NCBI GenBank assembly: GCA_050179755.1
Contig: JBFXEV010000001.1
Span: 1,461,296-1,525,295 of the forward strand
DNA length: 64,000 nucleotides
DNA from: Candidatus Babeliales bacterium
GTDB taxonomy: Bacteria > Babelota > Babeliae > Babelales > JBFXEV01
Reading direction: 5' to 3'
Numbering within the stretch: position 1 is the stretch's first letter; each line of letters begins with the position of its first letter. The notes under the pieces are model-generated. The model ran no database searches. It had not been told where the DNA came from and saw only the letters and a list, made by a program, of their open reading frames with translations. Made by a program: the position numbers and the translations under genes. Shown piece by piece: positions 27,468-38,354 of the stretch.

Positions 27468-30400
27468 TTATTGCGCTCTACGTAATTTATTTTGTAAAAG
27501 AGTAAGCACCTGTTGTTGTCTCTTTATTATGTTTTTATCTTCTTCTGAACAAGAACTTACTTGCAACGCTTCTAAAGCCGTATTGGTAGTCTGTACTATA
27601 GAATACAATAAATTAGAAATATTTGCTTCTTTAGAATTTTTAGCAACATTTGCGCATATAAAAACAAGCTTGGTGGCCATATGAGCTCGTACTGCTAAAG
27701 TTTGGCCATATTGACCGTTCAGCCAATAGATAACTTGATCTTGCGCTACTTTCATTATTCTTTCTTTACACACTAAATCATCGACTGCTTGAACATTTTC
27801 TGCAGCTTTTGTTAAAATGGTGACCACATTATCAAAGTTGGCATTTTTTGTTCCTAACCATAATAACGTTAGCTTAACACTAAAATAACTATGATACGCA
27901 AGAGCTCGTTTCATCACATCAATATCCTCACTCTGCATTATTACTACGTGCAGTAATGCAAGCATTTTTTCAAGTTGTTCAAGTGAAGGTTGCTTCATAT
28001 TATTTGCTAATGGAACAACCTCTCCTGCACCCGCTGCTTGTATTAGATTGACAATTGTTTGTACGCGATCGACTTCTTGCCGAACGAATAATCTATCAAA
28101 AGCGTCAAACGCTCTTTGGCAATGTTCTACCACTTCAGTAAGCTGCAAGAAACCTTGTTGATCCAACAATGCTCGTGCTTTATATGATTCATGTATACAT
28201 TCCATATCCGCGCCTTTATAAGTGGCAATTTCTTGGGATAATTGAGCATAGTGTTTATCTGCAAATAACACAGAAAGCAATAATCTATGCGCTTCCTCTG
28301 AACTATCTTTAATACGTTCCAGCAGCTCCAGACCGCGTTCTCGCAACTTTTTTGAAAGTTTATTTTTAAAAGTACGGTTTGTACTGTAATTAATGTACAT
28401 TCGTGCAACTTCTAAAATCTCCTCAACTGTTGCTTGCTCACGCAGAACATACTGCGTTACTTCATGAAAAATTTCTTGTGACTTATCTTGAAGCACAAGT
28501 ATATCAATATACATGCAATGAATTGCAGGCTCAGTATCTTTATATGATTTAATCAGATCTCTTGCCTTTGCAAGCAATAAGTTTCTCTCATGGCCCATCA
28601 CTGCCCGAGCCTGAGCCATATAAATATTTGCAAGTTTTGCGCGATTATTTGGGAAATCTTTAGAATCATCTATAATCAATTTTTGCAAGTAATCAACTGC
28701 CTTTGCAAGATCTTCTTTCATAAGATGAATTTTAAAACCAGCATAACAGTCTGCCATAAACTGCAATGAAGGGCGATGCTTGCCTGAACGTGATAATTGC
28801 TCCATCAAAGCAACCCCCTCTTGCCGCAATGCACTTTGCCCACTATCCATAAGAACCCGAGCAAATTCATATTTCACATCAATAGTAGGATTCAATTCCA
28901 ACGCTCGTTTATAAAGCAATCGTACTTGTTCCATGTTTACTTCTTTATCAAGAGCGCGGGCTTGCGTTACTTTAACCAATGCAAGTTGTTTTTGGCGCTC
29001 AGCAGTTTTGCCGCCCTGTTCTTGCAATGCTCTTGTTAATAAGGGATCCGCTTCAATCGTTAGATCTAAAAAATCTTGATTCATCCCTGCCTCTCTATAG
29101 CAACAACCCACCATTAAAAGATGTTCTCCTGATTGAGCAGTTCGAGCAGCTTTTAATATGGTAGGAAAGAGTGCCCTATATTTCCCGTGATGCAAATTTT
29201 TTAAATGCATATCTTTGGTGCTACGCAATGCCTGATCCACTAGTGAAAATAATTTGCATACATAATCAGCATTTTGCTGCGTAAGATGTTCTTGTTGCAC
29301 CCAATGTTCAATTACTCCAAGCAAAGCATCCAAATAAATAATACGATGCTGCTCTGGCAAACTATCTATAGCTATTTCTTTAAGCAACAAATCATCTTTA
29401 ACCGGATCATCAAACGCATCATTACCAGCTTGCACAGGATATAAAATAAATTGTAAAGCCTTCTTTTGATGTGCTAATGCGGTTCTTTCTTTAAGCAAAA
29501 ATCCACGGCCAAGATGAGCCCTTAATCCAAATACGTTGATCAATACATTTTGAATGCTTATATCTTTCCTAAAACGCTCCATATAGCGCAAAACGCCAGA
29601 CGTATTAAGAAATTCTAAATAGAAAGTATCAATCGTATGCTTATTACTCACAAAATATTTTTCGAGACTATGCACTGTACCTGCCAATGCAGCAATGTAT
29701 TTTTTATACTCGTCATCGTTATATACTTCAATTTCAAAAGCAGCTTCTTTACCACATGCAAGAGCATGTTGATACATAACAACACCATTAGATGAATGAA
29801 CTTTACTCATATCTTGTGAAAGTACGTGTAAATTCCACTCAAGTGCACTTAGCTTAAAACAACCTGCAAGTCTATACAAAGAATTAGGAGGAGCATTTCT
29901 AAATTTTTCTAAAGCCATAGTATAAAACACAAATGCAAGATCAGGTTCAATTTCTCGTAGTTCGTCTCCAACTCGTTCTGCCGCAAATGGATTGCCCAAT
30001 CGTGCCGCGTGTTTAAGACACTCTAGCCCTTCAAAGTATAATTCATCATCTTCCTCTACTATTAATTTTTTACCCTTCAAATACAGATCTTGCACCTTTT
30101 GATAATCAACTTGTACTGCAACTGATTGATCAGCAGCTGCTTCCATTTCTAGGGCACTTGAAACTAAAACGCTCTCTTGATCAGCCAGGCACGGGCCAAG
30201 AAGCACCTGCGCTTGAATATCTTCTTGAGACCTCTGTTTAGGCTCATATGCTGCTAAGTTTTTTTGAATCTCTTCAAACAATGCTTTGCTTGGTTCATAT
30301 GATCCTACAACAGATTTTTCAGCGTAAGCAAGAGCTCGTTTTAATTCATGAGAAGGATCTGCAGCATTCTCTTCTTGATCACTAATTGCTAAAAAGAAAT

Positions 30401-31079
30401 GATGTTTTGCCAGAACATACTGCGCATGCGCATTATTATTTGCCTGCGCAAGCCGTTCTATATCATCTAAAATCTCACTATTTTCATTAAATACCAGGGA
30501 ATGCTCTCTATAGTTTTTTTCCTTTTGATCAGTTTCTTTAAGTGTAATGAGATCCTCAAAGCGTTCAAGCCCTTGATCAACATTGGACAATAAGGGACTG
30601 TTAATTAATTGCTTCACCAGATAAAATTTAGAAAGTGGATGATCCTTTTCGTCAGCAAGAATCCTTACACGGCCAATTGCTTCTTGCCGCATTCTTAGTA
30701 AAAGAGGGGTGTCTCTAGGACCTTTTATAACGTCATCAAGATATTTAAAAACGAGATCTGACTCTTTCAATGCAATGTCTGCCTGTAAACCCATAATAAA
30801 AGCTTTAAATGAAGCAAGTTCTGCAGTAGAACCATTTGGATTATCATTAAGTGCTCGTTTTGTTGCTCGCAAAGCAATTTTTAAATGCTTATCTAAGGCC
30901 GGACCTGTTGTAATTAAAACATTTTCTAAAGCCGAGCGCGCCGTCAGTAGATCTTTGCTCGGACTATGAGAATTAGGCACAACAAGCGCCTTACTTTTTT
31001 TCATACCATGTACTGGCAGCGTACACATCAAACATAACAAAGCTGGATAGAGCGATCTCATCATGAACCTTACTGGCAT
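27468..31079 (-). CDS. Large secreted Sel1-like/TPR helical-repeat protein (1203 aa)
   Basis: Signal ...LPVHG|MKK; SLR-like segments (NNAHAQYVLAKH, AARLGNPFAA, EDLAKAVDYL); start overlaps or abuts the sufD stop. Confidence 0.68.
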   Translation of the reverse strand: MPVRFMMRSLYPALLCLMCTLPVHGMKKSKALVVPNSHSPSKDLLTARSALENVLITTGPALDKHLKIALRATKRALNDNPNGSTAELASFKAFIMGLQADIALKESDLVFKYLDDVIKGPRDTPLLLRMRQEAIGRVRILADEKDHPLSKFYLVKQLINSPLLSNVDQGLERFEDLITLKETDQKEKNYREHSLVFNENSEILDDIERLAQANNNAHAQYVLAKHHFFLAISDQEENAADPSHELKRALAYAEKSVVGSYEPSKALFEEIQKNLAAYEPKQRSQEDIQAQVLLGPCLADQESVLVSSALEMEAAADQSVAVQVDYQKVQDLYLKGKKLIVEEDDELYFEGLECLKHAARLGNPFAAERVGDELREIEPDLAFVFYTMALEKFRNAPPNSLYRLAGCFKLSALEWNLHVLSQDMSKVHSSNGVVMYQHALACGKEAAFEIEVYNDDEYKKYIAALAGTVHSLEKYFVSNKHTIDTFYLEFLNTSGVLRYMERFRKDISIQNVLINVFGLRAHLGRGFLLKERTALAHQKKALQFILYPVQAGNDAFDDPVKDDLLLKEIAIDSLPEQHRIIYLDALLGVIEHWVQQEHLTQQNADYVCKLFSLVDQALRSTKDMHLKNLHHGKYRALFPTILKAARTAQSGEHLLMVGCCYREAGMNQDFLDLTIEADPLLTRALQEQGGKTAERQKQLALVKVTQARALDKEVNMEQVRLLYKRALELNPTIDVKYEFARVLMDSGQSALRQEGVALMEQLSRSGKHRPSLQFMADCYAGFKIHLMKEDLAKAVDYLQKLIIDDSKDFPNNRAKLANIYMAQARAVMGHERNLLLAKARDLIKSYKDTEPAIHCMYIDILVLQDKSQEIFHEVTQYVLREQATVEEILEVARMYINYSTNRTFKNKLSKKLRERGLELLERIKDSSEEAHRLLLSVLFADKHYAQLSQEIATYKGADMECIHESYKARALLDQQGFLQLTEVVEHCQRAFDAFDRLFVRQEVDRVQTIVNLIQAAGAGEVVPLANNMKQPSLEQLEKMLALLHVVIMQSEDIDVMKRALAYHSYFSVKLTLLWLGTKNANFDNVVTILTKAAENVQAVDDLVCKERIMKVAQDQVIYWLNGQYGQTLAVRAHMATKLVFICANVAKNSKEANISNLLYSIVQTTNTALEALQVSSCSEEDKNIIKRQQQVLTLLQNKLRRAQ

Positions 31080-34777: not shown

Positions 34778-35062
34778 TTAACCACCAGTACAAAGATTAT
34801 ATGTATCAGGAAATCCTTGCTGTTTCTTGCTAAATCTTTTTAAATGAGCCTCTATCATTAAGGGTTCATTTATGCGTTCAAAAAAAAATGTATCCGTTTT
34901 TTCAGGATCAAATTTTATTTTTTGTTCAATTTTATCAAATATGCAAAGTGCTTTTACTAACTTTTTTGTAACTCCTGTAGTTATTTTTTCATATGATTTT
35001 GTTTCTATCAAGTAGTTTACAGTTGTTGCATCCTCAAATACTTTATAAAAATCTATATTCAT
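34778..35062 (-). CDS. Putative immunity protein, copy 3 (94 aa)
   Basis: Start MNIDFY at 35062 (AAAGGA upstream); VKALCIFDK...FD.EKTD.FF...EPLMIEAHLK...GFP.Y...TGG shared with the two neighbours. Confidence 0.6.
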   Translation of the reverse strand: MNIDFYKVFEDATTVNYLIETKSYEKITTGVTKKLVKALCIFDKIEQKIKFDPEKTDTFFFERINEPLMIEAHLKRFSKKQQGFPDTYNLCTGG

Positions 35063-35069
35063 TAATTTT

Positions 35070-35125
35070 CCTTTCCATAATCTATCCCATGCAACGGCAA
35101 TTTCAACATCAGCAGGAAGGCGTCC
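35070..35125 (-). pseudogene. Orphan fragment of a toxin-like C-terminal domain
   Basis: Encodes GRLPADVEIAVAWDRLWKG, matching SRFDPNIEIAAAWNRLYKG of 35800..37602. Confidence 0.6.
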
Positions 35126-35212
35126 GTTTGTCGTCAAAAATTGAAAACATAATACACTAGGGTAAATTGTAGGCTTTTTTATAGCCAACACCCAAATTTT
35201 TGAGATAAAACA

Positions 35213-35500
35213 TTATCCCCCAGTAGCAATATGATACTCCTCTGGAAATCCATTTTGCTTTTTATCAATTTTTTTCAAATGAGCTTCTATCATTAAAGGT
35301 TCCCAAGAACGATCAACAAAAAAAGAATCTGTTTGTTCAGAATCAAAAGATATGGTTTTTGTATTTTTATCAAATATACAAAGTCCTTTAACTTTTACCC
35401 ATTTTATTTCCGGCATAAAACTTTGATCCCAATAATCTGTCTCAACCCAGTAGCACACCCTTGCTTCATCTTCTGAGGCTATATGTAAATCCAAAAACAT
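35213..35500 (-). CDS. Putative immunity protein, copy 2 (95 aa)
   Basis: VKGLCIFDK...FDSEQTDSFF...WEPLMIEAHLKK...GFPEEYHIATGG. Confidence 0.62.
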   Translation of the reverse strand: MFLDLHIASEDEARVCYWVETDYWDQSFMPEIKWVKVKGLCIFDKNTKTISFDSEQTDSFFVDRSWEPLMIEAHLKKIDKKQNGFPEEYHIATGG

Positions 35501-35515
35501 AATATTACTTTCAAA

Positions 35516-35800
35516 TTACCCACCTGTTACTATATCATACATATCTGGAAAAGGCTCTCCAATTCTATTGAGCTTTTTTAAATGGTGCAATATATATATC
35601 GGTTCCCATTGGCAATTAAAATAATAAGCATCAGTCTTTTCATTATCGAAAGTTATAGTTTCCAATTTCTTATCAAATATGCACAGGGCTTTTACAACTG
35701 TCTTTATAATCTTTGTTGGAGTTTCCTCATATATAGTACTTTCTATCCTATAACTAACAGATTCAGCATCTTCAGATATCTTATCAAGTTTTAAATACAT
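35516..35800 (-). CDS. Putative immunity protein, copy 1 (94 aa, probably cognate)
   Basis: Start overlaps the stop of the upstream toxin-like gene (TAATG); same family motifs, ends IVTGG. Confidence 0.65.
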   Translation of the reverse strand: MYLKLDKISEDAESVSYRIESTIYEETPTKIIKTVVKALCIFDKKLETITFDNEKTDAYYFNCQWEPIYILHHLKKLNRIGEPFPDMYDIVTGG

Positions 35801-37602
35801 TATTTCTCCAAAAATTTAGGTTCGTTCCAGTACCATCTTGTTTGAATTCTATCATGAGCTGTATCATAGTTGGTTTTAAAAATTTTTTCATATTTGGATT
35901 CTGCATATTCATGTTGCAATAATTGAATATCATTTTTTATGTAATCACCCTTATACAGCCTATTCCACGCTGCTGCGATTTCTATGTTAGGATCAAATCG
36001 AGAAATTTTTGTGCGTAAGACATGCATGTCTTTAAATAGATGATCTTTTATAGTTTGAATTTTCGATAAAGACATCCCTGTATTTTTAGATATTTTTTCA
36101 ACATCATCTAGTAGCCCCTGTATTCTGACATACTCTTTCTCAGCCCATTCAAAAGCTTTATAATCATCCAATGGCCTTACAATTCTACACTTTTCTCCAG
36201 TGCCCTTTACTACTTTATAAATATCTTTTGGCTCTGGTTTAAACATTTTTACAAACTCTTTATCTTCTTTTTTTTGCCGTCCCTTCACTTTACATGCTCT
36301 TCTATCAGCTGCTCGTTGCATGCGATTTGTCTTAACATCTTTAAGTGTAGACACGGACACAGAATTATTGTTAAGTATGACTTTATCAATTGTATGTGTG
36401 CCCGCACCAACAAGTTTAATTGCGTATTTATCAACTTTACCATTAAAATACATACTTGCTGCAATTGAGCTTGCTGCCCTCAAACAACCATGCACCGTGA
36501 CATTTGCCATTGCTGCTTCAAGTTCTTTTTGCTTCTCTTCAAATTTTTCGTTATTCCCTGCTAATTTTGCAACCCCAGCTGCTGCATAATCCAAGACAAC
36601 CAATCCAACATTAAGCGCAAACTTAGCAGTATAATATTTACCCATAACTACTGGAAACAACCCAAACAAAACCATCTCAGTTTTATGATTTAGAGCATAT
36701 TCAGCTACATTAATTGCAGCATCTTGAATACCTTCAAGCACTGCTTGCCCACAATCCATTAGTCCCCAACAAAAATCAGCAATATGAACCGTGGCAATAA
36801 TATCACCAATTTTATTAAATTGAGCGCCGCGTGCTGCCATACTTACAATGTAATTTGTAGAAGATCGATATTCTTTGATATAGGCAGAATGTTTCAATAG
36901 CTTCGATGTTTGCTCAAGAATATCTATAAGTTCAATATGCAATTGATGCTGCAGTGGATTATACAAACCATTGCGAAATAATTGTGTATCTACTTTATTG
37001 GAATATAATAATGCATCTACATCATGAGATAATTGATACTTACGCTCTATAAAAAAAGATGCATTATCTTTGGTTGATTCATATGCCAGCTTACGCGCAT
37101 TATAACGCGCATAAGCGTCGTTTTGAGATCCCTTCAAGAACAACTCAACTTCTTCCTGCCAAAGATCAAATTGATCTGCCAAGGCAAGAGTATCAGGCCA
37201 TATTTCTTTAAATGTATCTAACTGCTTATTTGCTGAACTTATATTATCAATTATCTCAGGAATGTGCACCCTACTAGTTGCATTTTCATTTGATCTGCGT
37301 TCATCCGGATAATACGCTGCAGACTCCGACGCATGCCCGCGTGGATCTCTGTCAATATTATCATATGGATCATAGTAAGAAGAAGATTCCCAAGAAGGTC
37401 TTATTGAATGTGAAGAATGTTCTCGAGAAGTATCTACAGAAGATGGCTCAGATGGTACATCCCGCTCAAAATAAGATATCGGAGGACTAAAATATTCTGG
37501 CAATAATCTATTGAGTTCACATCTTATAGTGGAACATACAAACAATGCAAAAAATGCAAAAATAGATGCAACCGCAACACCCAATGCTTTAACATACTGC
37601 AT
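35800..37602 (-). CDS. Secreted polymorphic-toxin-like protein (600 aa)
   Basis: Signal peptide, helical core, hydrophobic/Gly-Ala segment, then C-terminal domain DVEKISKNTG...IKDHLF...RFDP...AWNRL...LLQHEYAE...YDTAH; followed by small coupled ORFs; AAGGAG RBS. Confidence 0.65.
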   Translation of the reverse strand: MQYVKALGVAVASIFAFFALFVCSTIRCELNRLLPEYFSPPISYFERDVPSEPSSVDTSREHSSHSIRPSWESSSYYDPYDNIDRDPRGHASESAAYYPDERRSNENATSRVHIPEIIDNISSANKQLDTFKEIWPDTLALADQFDLWQEEVELFLKGSQNDAYARYNARKLAYESTKDNASFFIERKYQLSHDVDALLYSNKVDTQLFRNGLYNPLQHQLHIELIDILEQTSKLLKHSAYIKEYRSSTNYIVSMAARGAQFNKIGDIIATVHIADFCWGLMDCGQAVLEGIQDAAINVAEYALNHKTEMVLFGLFPVVMGKYYTAKFALNVGLVVLDYAAAGVAKLAGNNEKFEEKQKELEAAMANVTVHGCLRAASSIAASMYFNGKVDKYAIKLVGAGTHTIDKVILNNNSVSVSTLKDVKTNRMQRAADRRACKVKGRQKKEDKEFVKMFKPEPKDIYKVVKGTGEKCRIVRPLDDYKAFEWAEKEYVRIQGLLDDVEKISKNTGMSLSKIQTIKDHLFKDMHVLRTKISRFDPNIEIAAAWNRLYKGDYIKNDIQLLQHEYAESKYEKIFKTNYDTAHDRIQTRWYWNEPKFLEK

Positions 37603-37793
37603 AGTCGCTCCTTATCGCTTATTGCAAATAAGTTATACTACATTTACATTAAAAAGCAAAAAAACATAAAGTATGATACATGAGACGCAAATTTTTAATA
37701 TCCATTGTTTGACAGCCTGAAAAAAGATATTCAAAATATAGGTGAATGCTCATCTAGAAGCATATATCATACTACTGTTGATTGGAAACTCTT

Positions 37794-38354
37794 ATGCTTA
37801 CACACTCTATTACGTTACTGATTTTAATTCTGTCATCAGTGAATATGTCCTTAAAGGCAATGGAAACGACTCCAGGGACTGGTAAATTAATTTTACAAAG
37901 TGGTAACTATCAAACGACTCTGAAAGCTAATGCTTTTAAACCCAATTATTTAATTATTCCAAAAGTCACTTCTAGTATTACTGAAGAAGATGGCTATAAG
38001 AGCAGTGTCGTACAAACCATTACAACCTTGCAAATAACACAAGTTAGTCATGCTAACGCTGATAATCCAACTGATATAACATCAAATTTCAGTGAATTTC
38101 CTGTACTTGATATTGGTCCTCTTGAAACTGTCATAAAAGCCGAATTATACAAAAAGTGGGAGGCACAAAAGAAACTTGATGATCATGCGGCTAAAGTTGC
38201 ACAAGGACAAGCCATTCATGCTGCACGAAAAGAAGATAGTGAAAAACTATCAATAACACAACGCAATCCCAAAACAACTATTTTTGTTTCTCTTGCACTT
38301 GGTGCGAGTCTAACATTGTTGTTGTCTCAATGGATTAATAAAGCAGAACTATGA
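37794..38354 (+). CDS. Secreted hypothetical protein with C-terminal hydrophobic segment
   Basis: Signal ...MSLKA|MET; C-terminal IFVSLALGASLTLLL. Confidence 0.65.
   Translation: MLTHSITLLILILSSVNMSLKAMETTPGTGKLILQSGNYQTTLKANAFKPNYLIIPKVTSSITEEDGYKSSVVQTITTLQITQVSHANADNPTDITSNFSEFPVLDIGPLETVIKAELYKKWEAQKKLDDHAAKVAQGQAIHAARKEDSEKLSITQRNPKTTIFVSLALGASLTLLLSQWINKAEL

Follow-up and report, generated by a model that had tools for sequence, protein, structure and literature searches.

A probable polymorphic toxin-immunity locus in a Dependentiae (Babeliales) bacterium, with a carrier region found across the phylum and a C-terminal head shared with other toxin carriers

We analyzed a 64-kb stretch of the single-contig genome of a Candidatus Babeliales bacterium (phylum Dependentiae; contig JBFXEV010000001.1, positions 1,461,296 to 1,525,295; here called the window), in which a gene for a 600-amino-acid (aa) protein, P0002, is followed by three small paralogous genes in the manner of a polymorphic toxin and its immunity proteins. 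The genome measures 1.525 Mb and has a completeness of 96%. The sequencing runs listed for it comprise three DNA runs of a single study, possibly its source sample, and no RNA run. All of the elements of the locus lie on the minus strand of the window and are listed here with the evidence for each in parentheses.

35800..37602, minus strand: candidate polymorphic toxin gene, 600 aa (P0002; open reading frame, or ORF; full-length homologs with 52 to 53% identity; domain dissection)
37510..37602, minus strand: N-terminal hydrophobic leader, aa 1 to 31, a probable Sec signal (Kyte-Doolittle 19-residue mean of 2.39; similar leaders on paralogs)
36598..37125, minus strand: conserved helical carrier core, aa ~160 to 335, with the motifs N..Q..LH.E..(D/E)IL and ADFCW (alignment A7)
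36559..36627, minus strand: hydrophobic Gly/Ala-rich segment, aa 326 to 348 (Kyte-Doolittle 19-residue mean of 1.47; predicted to be helical with moderate confidence)
36268..36324, minus strand: basic linker RMQRAADRRACKVKGRQKK, aa 427 to 445, just before the cassette junction (translation)
35803..36243, minus strand: putative C-terminal toxin head, aa ~454 to 600, a beta-hairpin followed by an all-alpha domain (cluster search; alignment A2; AlphaFold2, or AF2)
35516..35800, minus strand: putative immunity gene 1, 94 aa, presumed cognate, with its start overlapping the toxin stop (ORF, alignment, complex model)
35213..35500, minus strand: putative immunity paralog 2, 95 aa (45% identity to copy 1; family hidden Markov model, or HMM, E value of 8e-46)
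35063..35131, minus strand: toxin-head relic TNGRLPADVEIAVAWDRLWKGKL, joined in frame to the start of immunity gene 3 and lacking the HE..E part (head HMM)
34778..35062, minus strand: putative immunity paralog 3, 94 aa from the ATG at 35062 (46% identity to copy 1)

The 600-aa protein, its hydrophobic N-terminal stretch, Gly/Ala segment and basic linker, and the three 94- to 95-aa paralogs had all been proposed in an earlier reading made without database searches (here, the sequence-only reading), and the ORFs, alignment, Kyte-Doolittle scan, and translation bear them out. As had been stated, the stop codon of the toxin overlaps the start codon of immunity gene 1 in the string TAATG. Besides the 45 to 46% identity of copies 2 and 3 to copy 1, the three small proteins have 33 invariant columns and share the motifs VK[AG]LCIFDK, FD.E.TD, EP..I..HLK, and FP..Y and a terminal TGG. 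The third small ORF was listed as 34778 to 35191, i.e., 137 aa from a GTG; starting from the family-conforming ATG at 35062, it encodes 94 aa and can be aligned with copies 1 and 2 over its whole length. The block is also, as had been suspected, more AT rich than its surroundings, with a guanine-plus-cytosine (GC) content of 33.7% versus 39.1% genome-wide and 30 to 32.5% in the head and the small genes, and only 2.1% of the equal-length windows of the genome have a GC content as low as that of the block.

The region between the leader and the head contains a carrier core that is common to nine proteins of this genome, the window toxin and eight others. Residues ~126 to 480 of the toxin match proteins of 586 and 1,307 aa, residues ~166 to 320 match six further proteins of 623 to 789 aa, and the alignment of the nine cores (A7) has 12 invariant columns. 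Their C termini are not uniform: in a Pfam scan, two of the paralogs carry an Ntox35 head (27.7 and 29.7 bits; cutoff, 23.6) and one carries an EndoU_bacteria head (55.1 bits; cutoff, 25.3), and the remaining scanned paralogs have no Pfam head match above the cutoff. Homologous N termini with different tips, which the sequence-only reading had proposed to look for, are thus found within a single genome. A carrier-core profile run against the 261 genomes of the window's own phylum (0.5 to 1.9 Mb in size) recovered matches in 96 of them (70 of the 189 high-quality genomes and 64 of the 145 genera), with up to 13 matches per genome and 10 in this one. Word-indexed protein searches with the full-length toxin or the carrier had returned only two to three relatives, a limit of their sensitivity, as the whole-genome profile search shows.

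No Pfam model matched the carrier core, and two sub-threshold matches, TssO to the toxin (E = 0.029; 15 bits against a cutoff of 29.2) and MerP (E = 0.052), were dismissed. An AF2 model of aa 100 to 440 is helical, with predicted local distance difference test (pLDDT) values of 86 to 96 at model residues 61 to 140 (approximately aa 160 to 239), and it has no convincing solved relative (best Foldseek E value of 0.09; best VIA Z score of 6.3, all generic helical bundles). A lipoprotein anchor was considered for the leader and set aside, the LFVC string before the first Cys of the toxin being unlike a canonical lipobox. The 1,307-aa paralog (L019; G000:C1:1074532-1078455) contains the carrier core twice, at 1075054-1075410 and 1076896-1077408.

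The C-terminal module that is conserved among homologs is ~145 aa long, beginning at about aa 454, rather than ~115 aa as first delimited. We searched all of 1.84 billion cluster representatives (clusters at 50% identity) with aa 431 to 600 as the query and obtained 1,352 matches at E ≤ 1e-3, 467 at E ≤ 1e-10, and 24 at E ≤ 1e-30. Among the matches listed, the head ends no more than 30 residues from the C terminus in 147 of 149 proteins, whose lengths range from 71 to 6,656 aa. When 51 of the longer head-bearing proteins were scanned with Pfam, 37 had no family at all; the other 14 include proteins with LXG (3), PT-TG (3), RHS repeats (4), Phage_GPD (1), LysM (2), and a sub-threshold PT-HINT. 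The occurrence of this tip on Rhs- and MuF-type proteins, which the sequence-only reading had put forward, is therefore found in the data, together with LXG, PT-TG, and VgrG, the head homologs on LXG, Rhs/PT-TG, VgrG, and phage MuF carriers being 33 to 59% identical. In a phage collection, 18 records match the head (15 from Streptococcus, 2 from Clostridium, and 1 from Staphylococcus); e.g., gp4 of Clostridium phage CDMH1, whose gene lies just after the portal gene, combines Phage_Mu_F (E = 1.5e-16) with the head at its end. Within the phylum, the head was found in 24 of the 261 genomes. The window's own genome has a second copy on a 327-aa protein that lacks the carrier core; the similarity of the two proteins (56% identity) begins right after the basic linker, at FKPEPKDIYK, and continues onward from there.

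An alignment of 47 heads (A2) shows invariant D70, I74, K89, W116, H134, and E135 and near-invariant H91, F93, H97, R118, E138, E142, Y149, and H153. Adding 430 gives the residue number in the toxin, in which D500, K519, W546, H564, and E565 are invariant and H521, H527, R548, E568, E572, Y579, and H583 nearly so. The AF2 model of the head (pLDDT, 90.1; predicted template modeling score, 0.79) consists of a short beta-hairpin followed by six helices. Foldseek found nothing in the Protein Data Bank (PDB) at E ≤ 1e-3 (best E, 0.58), and an exhaustive VIA-align comparison with 48,161 chains gave a best Z score of 3.7 and none at Z ≥ 5. Neither the head of the window toxin nor those of the 51 relatives have a Pfam match, and NCBIfam and PHROGs likewise gave none.

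Several candidates for the identity of the head were considered, and none was adopted. A sequence profile search of the PDB returned repeated short matches to designed tetratricopeptide repeat (TPR) proteins, which are spurious because they arise from the DP..A.AW..L motif; in the same search, a goose-type lysozyme appeared at E = 0.084. A cluster containing Pyocin_S in the ESM Atlas scored 0.88, below the level of trust, and the other clusters were unnamed. By eye, the nearest all-alpha head motif is that of Ntox28 ([DN]HxxE), in which the spacing differs from the HExxE seen here, and no Pfam family falls on the head. The toxin-head table in the main text of Zhang et al. 2012 contains no evident equivalent.

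The small genes are linked to the head well beyond this locus. When one genome per species was scanned by pattern, 148 relatives of the head turned up, and the 80 loci retained from these represent Bacillota, Cyanobacteria, Pseudomonadota, Fibrobacteres, Bacteroidota, and Dependentiae. All 80 have an ORF of 56 to 114 aa directly downstream of the head on the same strand. A general immunity HMM built from 24 of these downstream ORFs (26 loci carry identical sequences) matches 52 of the 54 remaining ones at E < 1e-5, and the two that it misses belong to Dependentiae loci that match the local profile built around the TGG-ending proteins. One Dependentiae small protein matches both of these profiles, with 61.8 and 22.2 bits. 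Local and general small proteins also share an N-terminal strand region, M-x-(F/Y)-(V/I)-x-(L/I)-x-K..ED...V.Y, and a C-terminal FP motif a few residues from the very end. The TGG proteins appear to be a local branch of the head-linked small-gene family. An adjacent ORF of ~100 aa with the same pattern is present in 15 of 16 further Dependentiae head loci without a match to the TGG profile, the small ORF after the CDMH1 MuF toxin matches the immunity profile with 21.8 bits, and a fourth immunity paralog directly follows the 327-aa head protein of the window's own genome. The TGG profile itself occurs in 11 of the 261 genomes of the phylum, this one included. The description of the immunity family as unnamed holds, in that the three window small proteins and their scanned relatives (10 for Pfam and 8 for NCBIfam) have no significant match in either database, and PHROGs likewise returned nothing usable for the small proteins. 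The small proteins have no N-terminal hydrophobic leader, which fits a toxin that acts in the cytoplasm. In two genomes (L025 in G023 and L029 in G020), diverged TGG members adjoin the same glycosyltransferase gene and no toxin lies close by; they may be long-standing orphans or may have taken on another role.

The pairing of the tip with small protein 1, for which a complex prediction had been proposed, is predicted with good scores. A complex model of aa 458 to 600 with immunity protein 1 has an interface score (ipSAE) of 0.83 (0.82, 0.83, and 0.84 in individual runs), the best of three controls scoring 0.00. For comparison, the ipSAE mark is attained in 116 of 157 cases among solved complexes and in 2 of 215 among mismatched pairs, counts that are only rough, own alignments having been used. 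At least 97% of the contacts are the same from run to run, and the pLDDT of the partner is 91. On the toxin side, the predicted interface comprises H527, F536 to D539, H564, E565, E568, Y579, and H583; on the immunity side, it comprises residues 87 to 94, i.e., the FP...TGG tail. The model thus supports an arrangement in which the immunity tail would occlude the conserved His/Glu face of the head.

The locus bears marks of cassette exchange. The stretch of 69 bases that leads up to the ATG of copy 3 matches positions 93 to 119 of the head HMM with 19.1 bits and was also recovered in ORF-set searches (E = 6.5e-5 and 7.8e-4), which identifies the 5' extension of the third ORF as a toxin-head relic. 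The genus has one other species, in which the locus is syntenic and a toxin is likewise followed by three small genes. The two species share 44 to 58% identity in the toxin and 53 to 59% in the immunity genes, and the flanking genes are 62 to 99% identical, except for the two outermost, SufD (49%) and a large neighboring gene (35%). To judge from these identities, the locus evolves fast, and since no one-to-one pairing exists between the small genes of the two species, the arrays turn over. Other loci of the window's own genome contain full-length toxins with immunity candidates behind them, as well as truncated carrier ends, orphan EndoU- or restriction endonuclease (REase)-like heads, and extra immunity copies. 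Together with the relic and the low GC content of the head-immunity part, these remnants are the usual signature of displaced cassettes.

Three of these other loci can be described individually. The first (L015; G000:C1:424000-437000, minus strand) is a large polymorphic-toxin island, in which three full-length carrier-type toxins of 646, 623, and 693 aa stand in tandem, each followed by paired small ORFs (123 and 137 aa; 150 and 168 aa, TPR-like; and 127 and 135 aa), and which ends in orphan head fragments, one of 101 aa that is REase-like and one of 224 aa with an EndoU-like FPKNW motif. In the second (L014; G000:C1:690096-694024, plus strand), a 737-aa carrier toxin, whose C terminus resembles those of the Ntox35 paralogs by eye and has no Pfam hit, is followed by two TPR-like proteins (150 and 318 aa, with approximately three repeats of one unit) and lastly by a fifth, orphan TGG copy. 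The third (L016; G000:C1:209600-214269, minus strand) has a layout of textbook orphan cassettes: a 776-aa toxin with an EndoU-like end and a 135-aa ORF are followed by a 134-aa truncated carrier end, a 114-aa orphan EndoU-like head, and two paralogous ORFs of ~125 aa.

The locus in the window is flanked on one side by a gene for a GspE-like ATPase and on the other by an alpha/beta-hydrolase gene and then sufCBD. Divergent from the toxin gene lies an ORF of 190 aa (window positions 37782 to 38354, plus strand) that has a hydrophobic leader at the N terminus, a hydrophobic segment at the C terminus, and no family match; the corresponding ~2.5 kb of the sister genome contains no ORF matching this genome. 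Adjoining the suf genes is a gene for a 1,203-aa protein (27468 to 31079, minus strand) with a signal-like N terminus and no Pfam match, whose counterpart in the sister species is 35% identical.

We read the locus, with a probability of roughly 0.8, as one at which a Dependentiae bacterium encodes a polymorphic toxin and its immunity proteins, so that the interpretation offered by the sequence-only reading is largely upheld. Four properties of such systems, as defined by Zhang et al. 2012, are found: (i) a conserved N-terminal region is combined with variable toxin heads (this head, Ntox35 twice, and EndoU once); (ii) the toxin domain is common to LXG, PT-TG, RHS, Phage_GPD, and Phage_Mu_F proteins; (iii) a small gene stands immediately downstream and covaries with the head; and (iv) orphan cassettes of heads and immunity genes occur behind the full-length gene. 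On this reading, the 600-aa protein would be composed of a Sec-type leader, a helical carrier found across the phylum, a basic linker, and an exchangeable C-terminal head, the carrier being specific to the phylum and widespread in it as far as the search of the phylum's own genomes extends. The product of small gene 1 would be the cognate immunity protein, whose C-terminal tail, by prediction, lies over the conserved face of the head, and small genes 2 and 3 would be extra or orphan immunity copies from earlier cassette exchanges, the third still with its head relic.

The toxin would be exported by Sec and then either released via a secretin-type pathway or kept at the surface by the carrier. 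Two secretin genes are present in the genome, which (at its completeness of 96%) has no match to TssC of the type VI secretion system (T6SS), VirB4 of the type IV system, or FlhA/SctV of the type III system (T3SS) or flagellum. Sec followed by a secretin pathway or surface retention is thus the likely route, and it corresponds to the "T2SS/Sec-dependent" (type II secretion system) class in Table 1 of Zhang et al. 2012 (PMC3482391). Once delivered, the head, an all-alpha putative enzyme with a cluster of His, Glu, Asp, and Lys residues, would most likely act on a cytoplasmic target. Because of this conserved cluster and the leaderless immunity proteins, one might guess at a metal-dependent hydrolase of nucleic acids or nucleotides, which is the weakest step of the proposal.

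Several observations weigh against reading the locus as a polymorphic toxin system. The probable Sec-type signal is recognized by hydropathy alone; the head has no recognizable catalytic fold, and its enzymatic action is suggested only by the conserved residues; and the AF2 model of the carrier is only moderately confident (mean pLDDT of 70.5). In the sister genome, the ortholog of the toxin is spread over two reading frames. Local and general immunity profiles are moderately linked (79% probability, E = 1.6e-5, 71 columns), and in the remaining 1 of the 16 further Dependentiae head loci mentioned above (L129; G242:C1:1285100-1287000), a 395-aa WD40-repeat protein with a leader-like N terminus takes the place of the immunity gene. 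Moreover, of the 10 other genomes with the TGG profile, only three have an intact head directly upstream, and one has a broken head. In a fifth, two orphan copies follow an EndoU-type toxin and the putative immunity gene that belongs to it, three have no head in the ~1.5 kb fetched (two of these copies adjoin a glycosyltransferase gene), and the last two, with a short contig and a degenerate fragment, are uninformative. The small family, for which the sequence-only reading had asked whether it always follows this tip, does so in other phyla and also occurs as orphan copies without an adjacent head. Orphan immunity genes are usual in polymorphic-toxin systems, and for this reason we interpret the head-less TGG copies as such orphans.

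A more extended version of the polymorphic-toxin reading is somewhat unlikely and should be taken as tentative. In this version, the head would represent a novel fold of enzymatic toxin, with a His/Glu active site, that has spread with its immunity protein over at least six phyla and temperate phages, and the carrier would be an export and translocation module used throughout Dependentiae. These obligate intracellular parasites, with genomes of ~1 to 2 Mb, would then maintain a large arsenal of exchangeable toxins for warfare inside host cells against coinfecting bacteria or bacteria-derived organelles.

Dependentiae are parasites of protists, and an alternative that we regard as unlikely, while giving it real weight, is that the proteins are host-directed effectors: the carrier would serve to display or release heads of a bacterial type against the protist host or its organelles, and the small proteins would serve only to protect the producer before export. 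The small genomes of the phylum, the retention in such reduced genomes of a multicopy arsenal (10 matches in 1.5 Mb), and the eukaryote-like WD40 protein that follows one head locus are all in keeping with this idea, as are the endosymbiont effectors with lineage-specific N-terminal domains behind a signal peptide described by Zhang et al. 2012 (PMC3482391). However, the same cassette occurs on LXG, Rhs, and MuF carriers of free-living bacteria and phages, carriers that serve against bacterial targets, and the arrays of extra immunity genes and the orphan cassettes mark conflict between kin and would be needless for self-protection alone.

It is very unlikely that the proteins form a nontoxic surface or structural family with small partners, such as chaperones, whose C-terminal domain binds without being an enzyme. 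The lack of a match between the head and any known catalytic fold or family would suit such a role; however, the head occupies the exact position held by nucleases in the paralogs and in LXG, Rhs, and MuF toxins, and its invariant polar D, K, H, and E residues are gathered on the face that, by the complex model, the small protein would cover. Most improbable of all is an intracellular toxin-antitoxin or abortive-infection pair whose N-terminal part has no role in export, an idea that the tight coupling of the genes with their stop-start overlap and the presence of the cassette on prophages might recommend but that is at odds with the hydrophobic leader and 450-aa N-terminal region common to proteins with other secreted-toxin heads, with the placement of the head at the end of known secretion carriers, and with the order of toxin gene before small gene, which is that of polymorphic toxins.

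If the polymorphic-toxin reading is right, the architecture is familiar, and the novelty lies in the families of carrier, head, and immunity protein and in this first view of a large toxin arsenal in the phylum. Literature searches returned no paper on polymorphic toxins in Dependentiae, and the toxin and immunity papers that they did return were irrelevant by title or abstract. Three sizeable families come into view that have no Pfam or NCBIfam model, namely, the head (1,352 clusters), its immunity partner, and the carrier (37% of Dependentiae genomes), and for the head and the carrier no solved structural relative emerged from the searches made. Once the activity of the head is defined, it would annotate together toxins of Bacillus, Paenibacillus, Listeria, Clostridium, cyanobacteria, and Streptococcus and Clostridium prophages. 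The carrier points to a heavy investment in polymorphic toxins by a little-studied phylum of intracellular parasites and raises the question of which opponents Dependentiae meet inside the host cell.

Among known systems, lineage-specific N-terminal domains behind signal peptides have been described in Neisseria (MAFB-N), Microscilla, and Amoebophilus (APD1/2), and Zhang et al. 2012 (PMC3482391) predicted further ones; by analogy, the Dependentiae carrier would fit this description. The resemblance to MafB of Neisseria extends to the Sec-type leader, a lineage-restricted N-terminal domain, a C-terminal head that can be exchanged, an immunity gene immediately after it, remnants of orphan heads and immunity genes, and several paralogous loci per genome (PMC3482391). 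Unlike MafB, however, the window toxin has no DUF1020/MAFB-N match (the sub-threshold TssO is the only Pfam match at E ≤ 0.1), no MafA-like lipoprotein gene lies upstream of it, its neighbor there being the divergent ORF, and its carrier is helical with a hydrophobic Gly/Ala segment and spans a whole phylum (96 of 261 genomes) instead of one genus.

Comparable in another way are APD1/APD2 of Amoebophilus asiaticus, an intracellular bacterium of protists, and Microscilla-N, which likewise are lineage-specific N-terminal domains that are expanded within a genome and joined to diverse C termini (PMC3482391). The Amoebophilus effectors are deployed in parallel and mostly have eukaryote-directed domains (PMC3482391), whereas in Dependentiae the proteins have retained toxin heads of the classic kind, along with dedicated immunity genes and orphan cassettes; in the same comparison, the window toxin, with its LFVC, is without a canonical lipobox.

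The toxins of the LXG (type VII secretion system), Rhs/PT-TG, VgrG, and MuF classes share with the window toxin the C-terminal head and a small downstream gene homologous to those of the window. It differs from them and from CdiA in that the corresponding carrier domains are not reported for it by the same Pfam scan that detects them in other head-bearing proteins, which agrees with the prior description of a toxin without an Rhs, CdiA, VgrG, or LXG delivery domain; in addition, its genome has no matches to the T6SS sheath, VirB4, or the T3SS export gate. Finally, in the S8-PTS BetaH toxins of Gram-positive bacteria, as here, a signal peptide and a newly recognized N-terminal domain precede one of many heads, including Ntox35, and the heads are paired with dedicated immunity families (PMC9424270). 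Their carrier fold is unrelated to the helical one seen here, and no S8 peptidase partner lies next to the window locus, but BetaH/S8 offers a comparable recent case of the discovery of a new carrier domain (PMC9424270).

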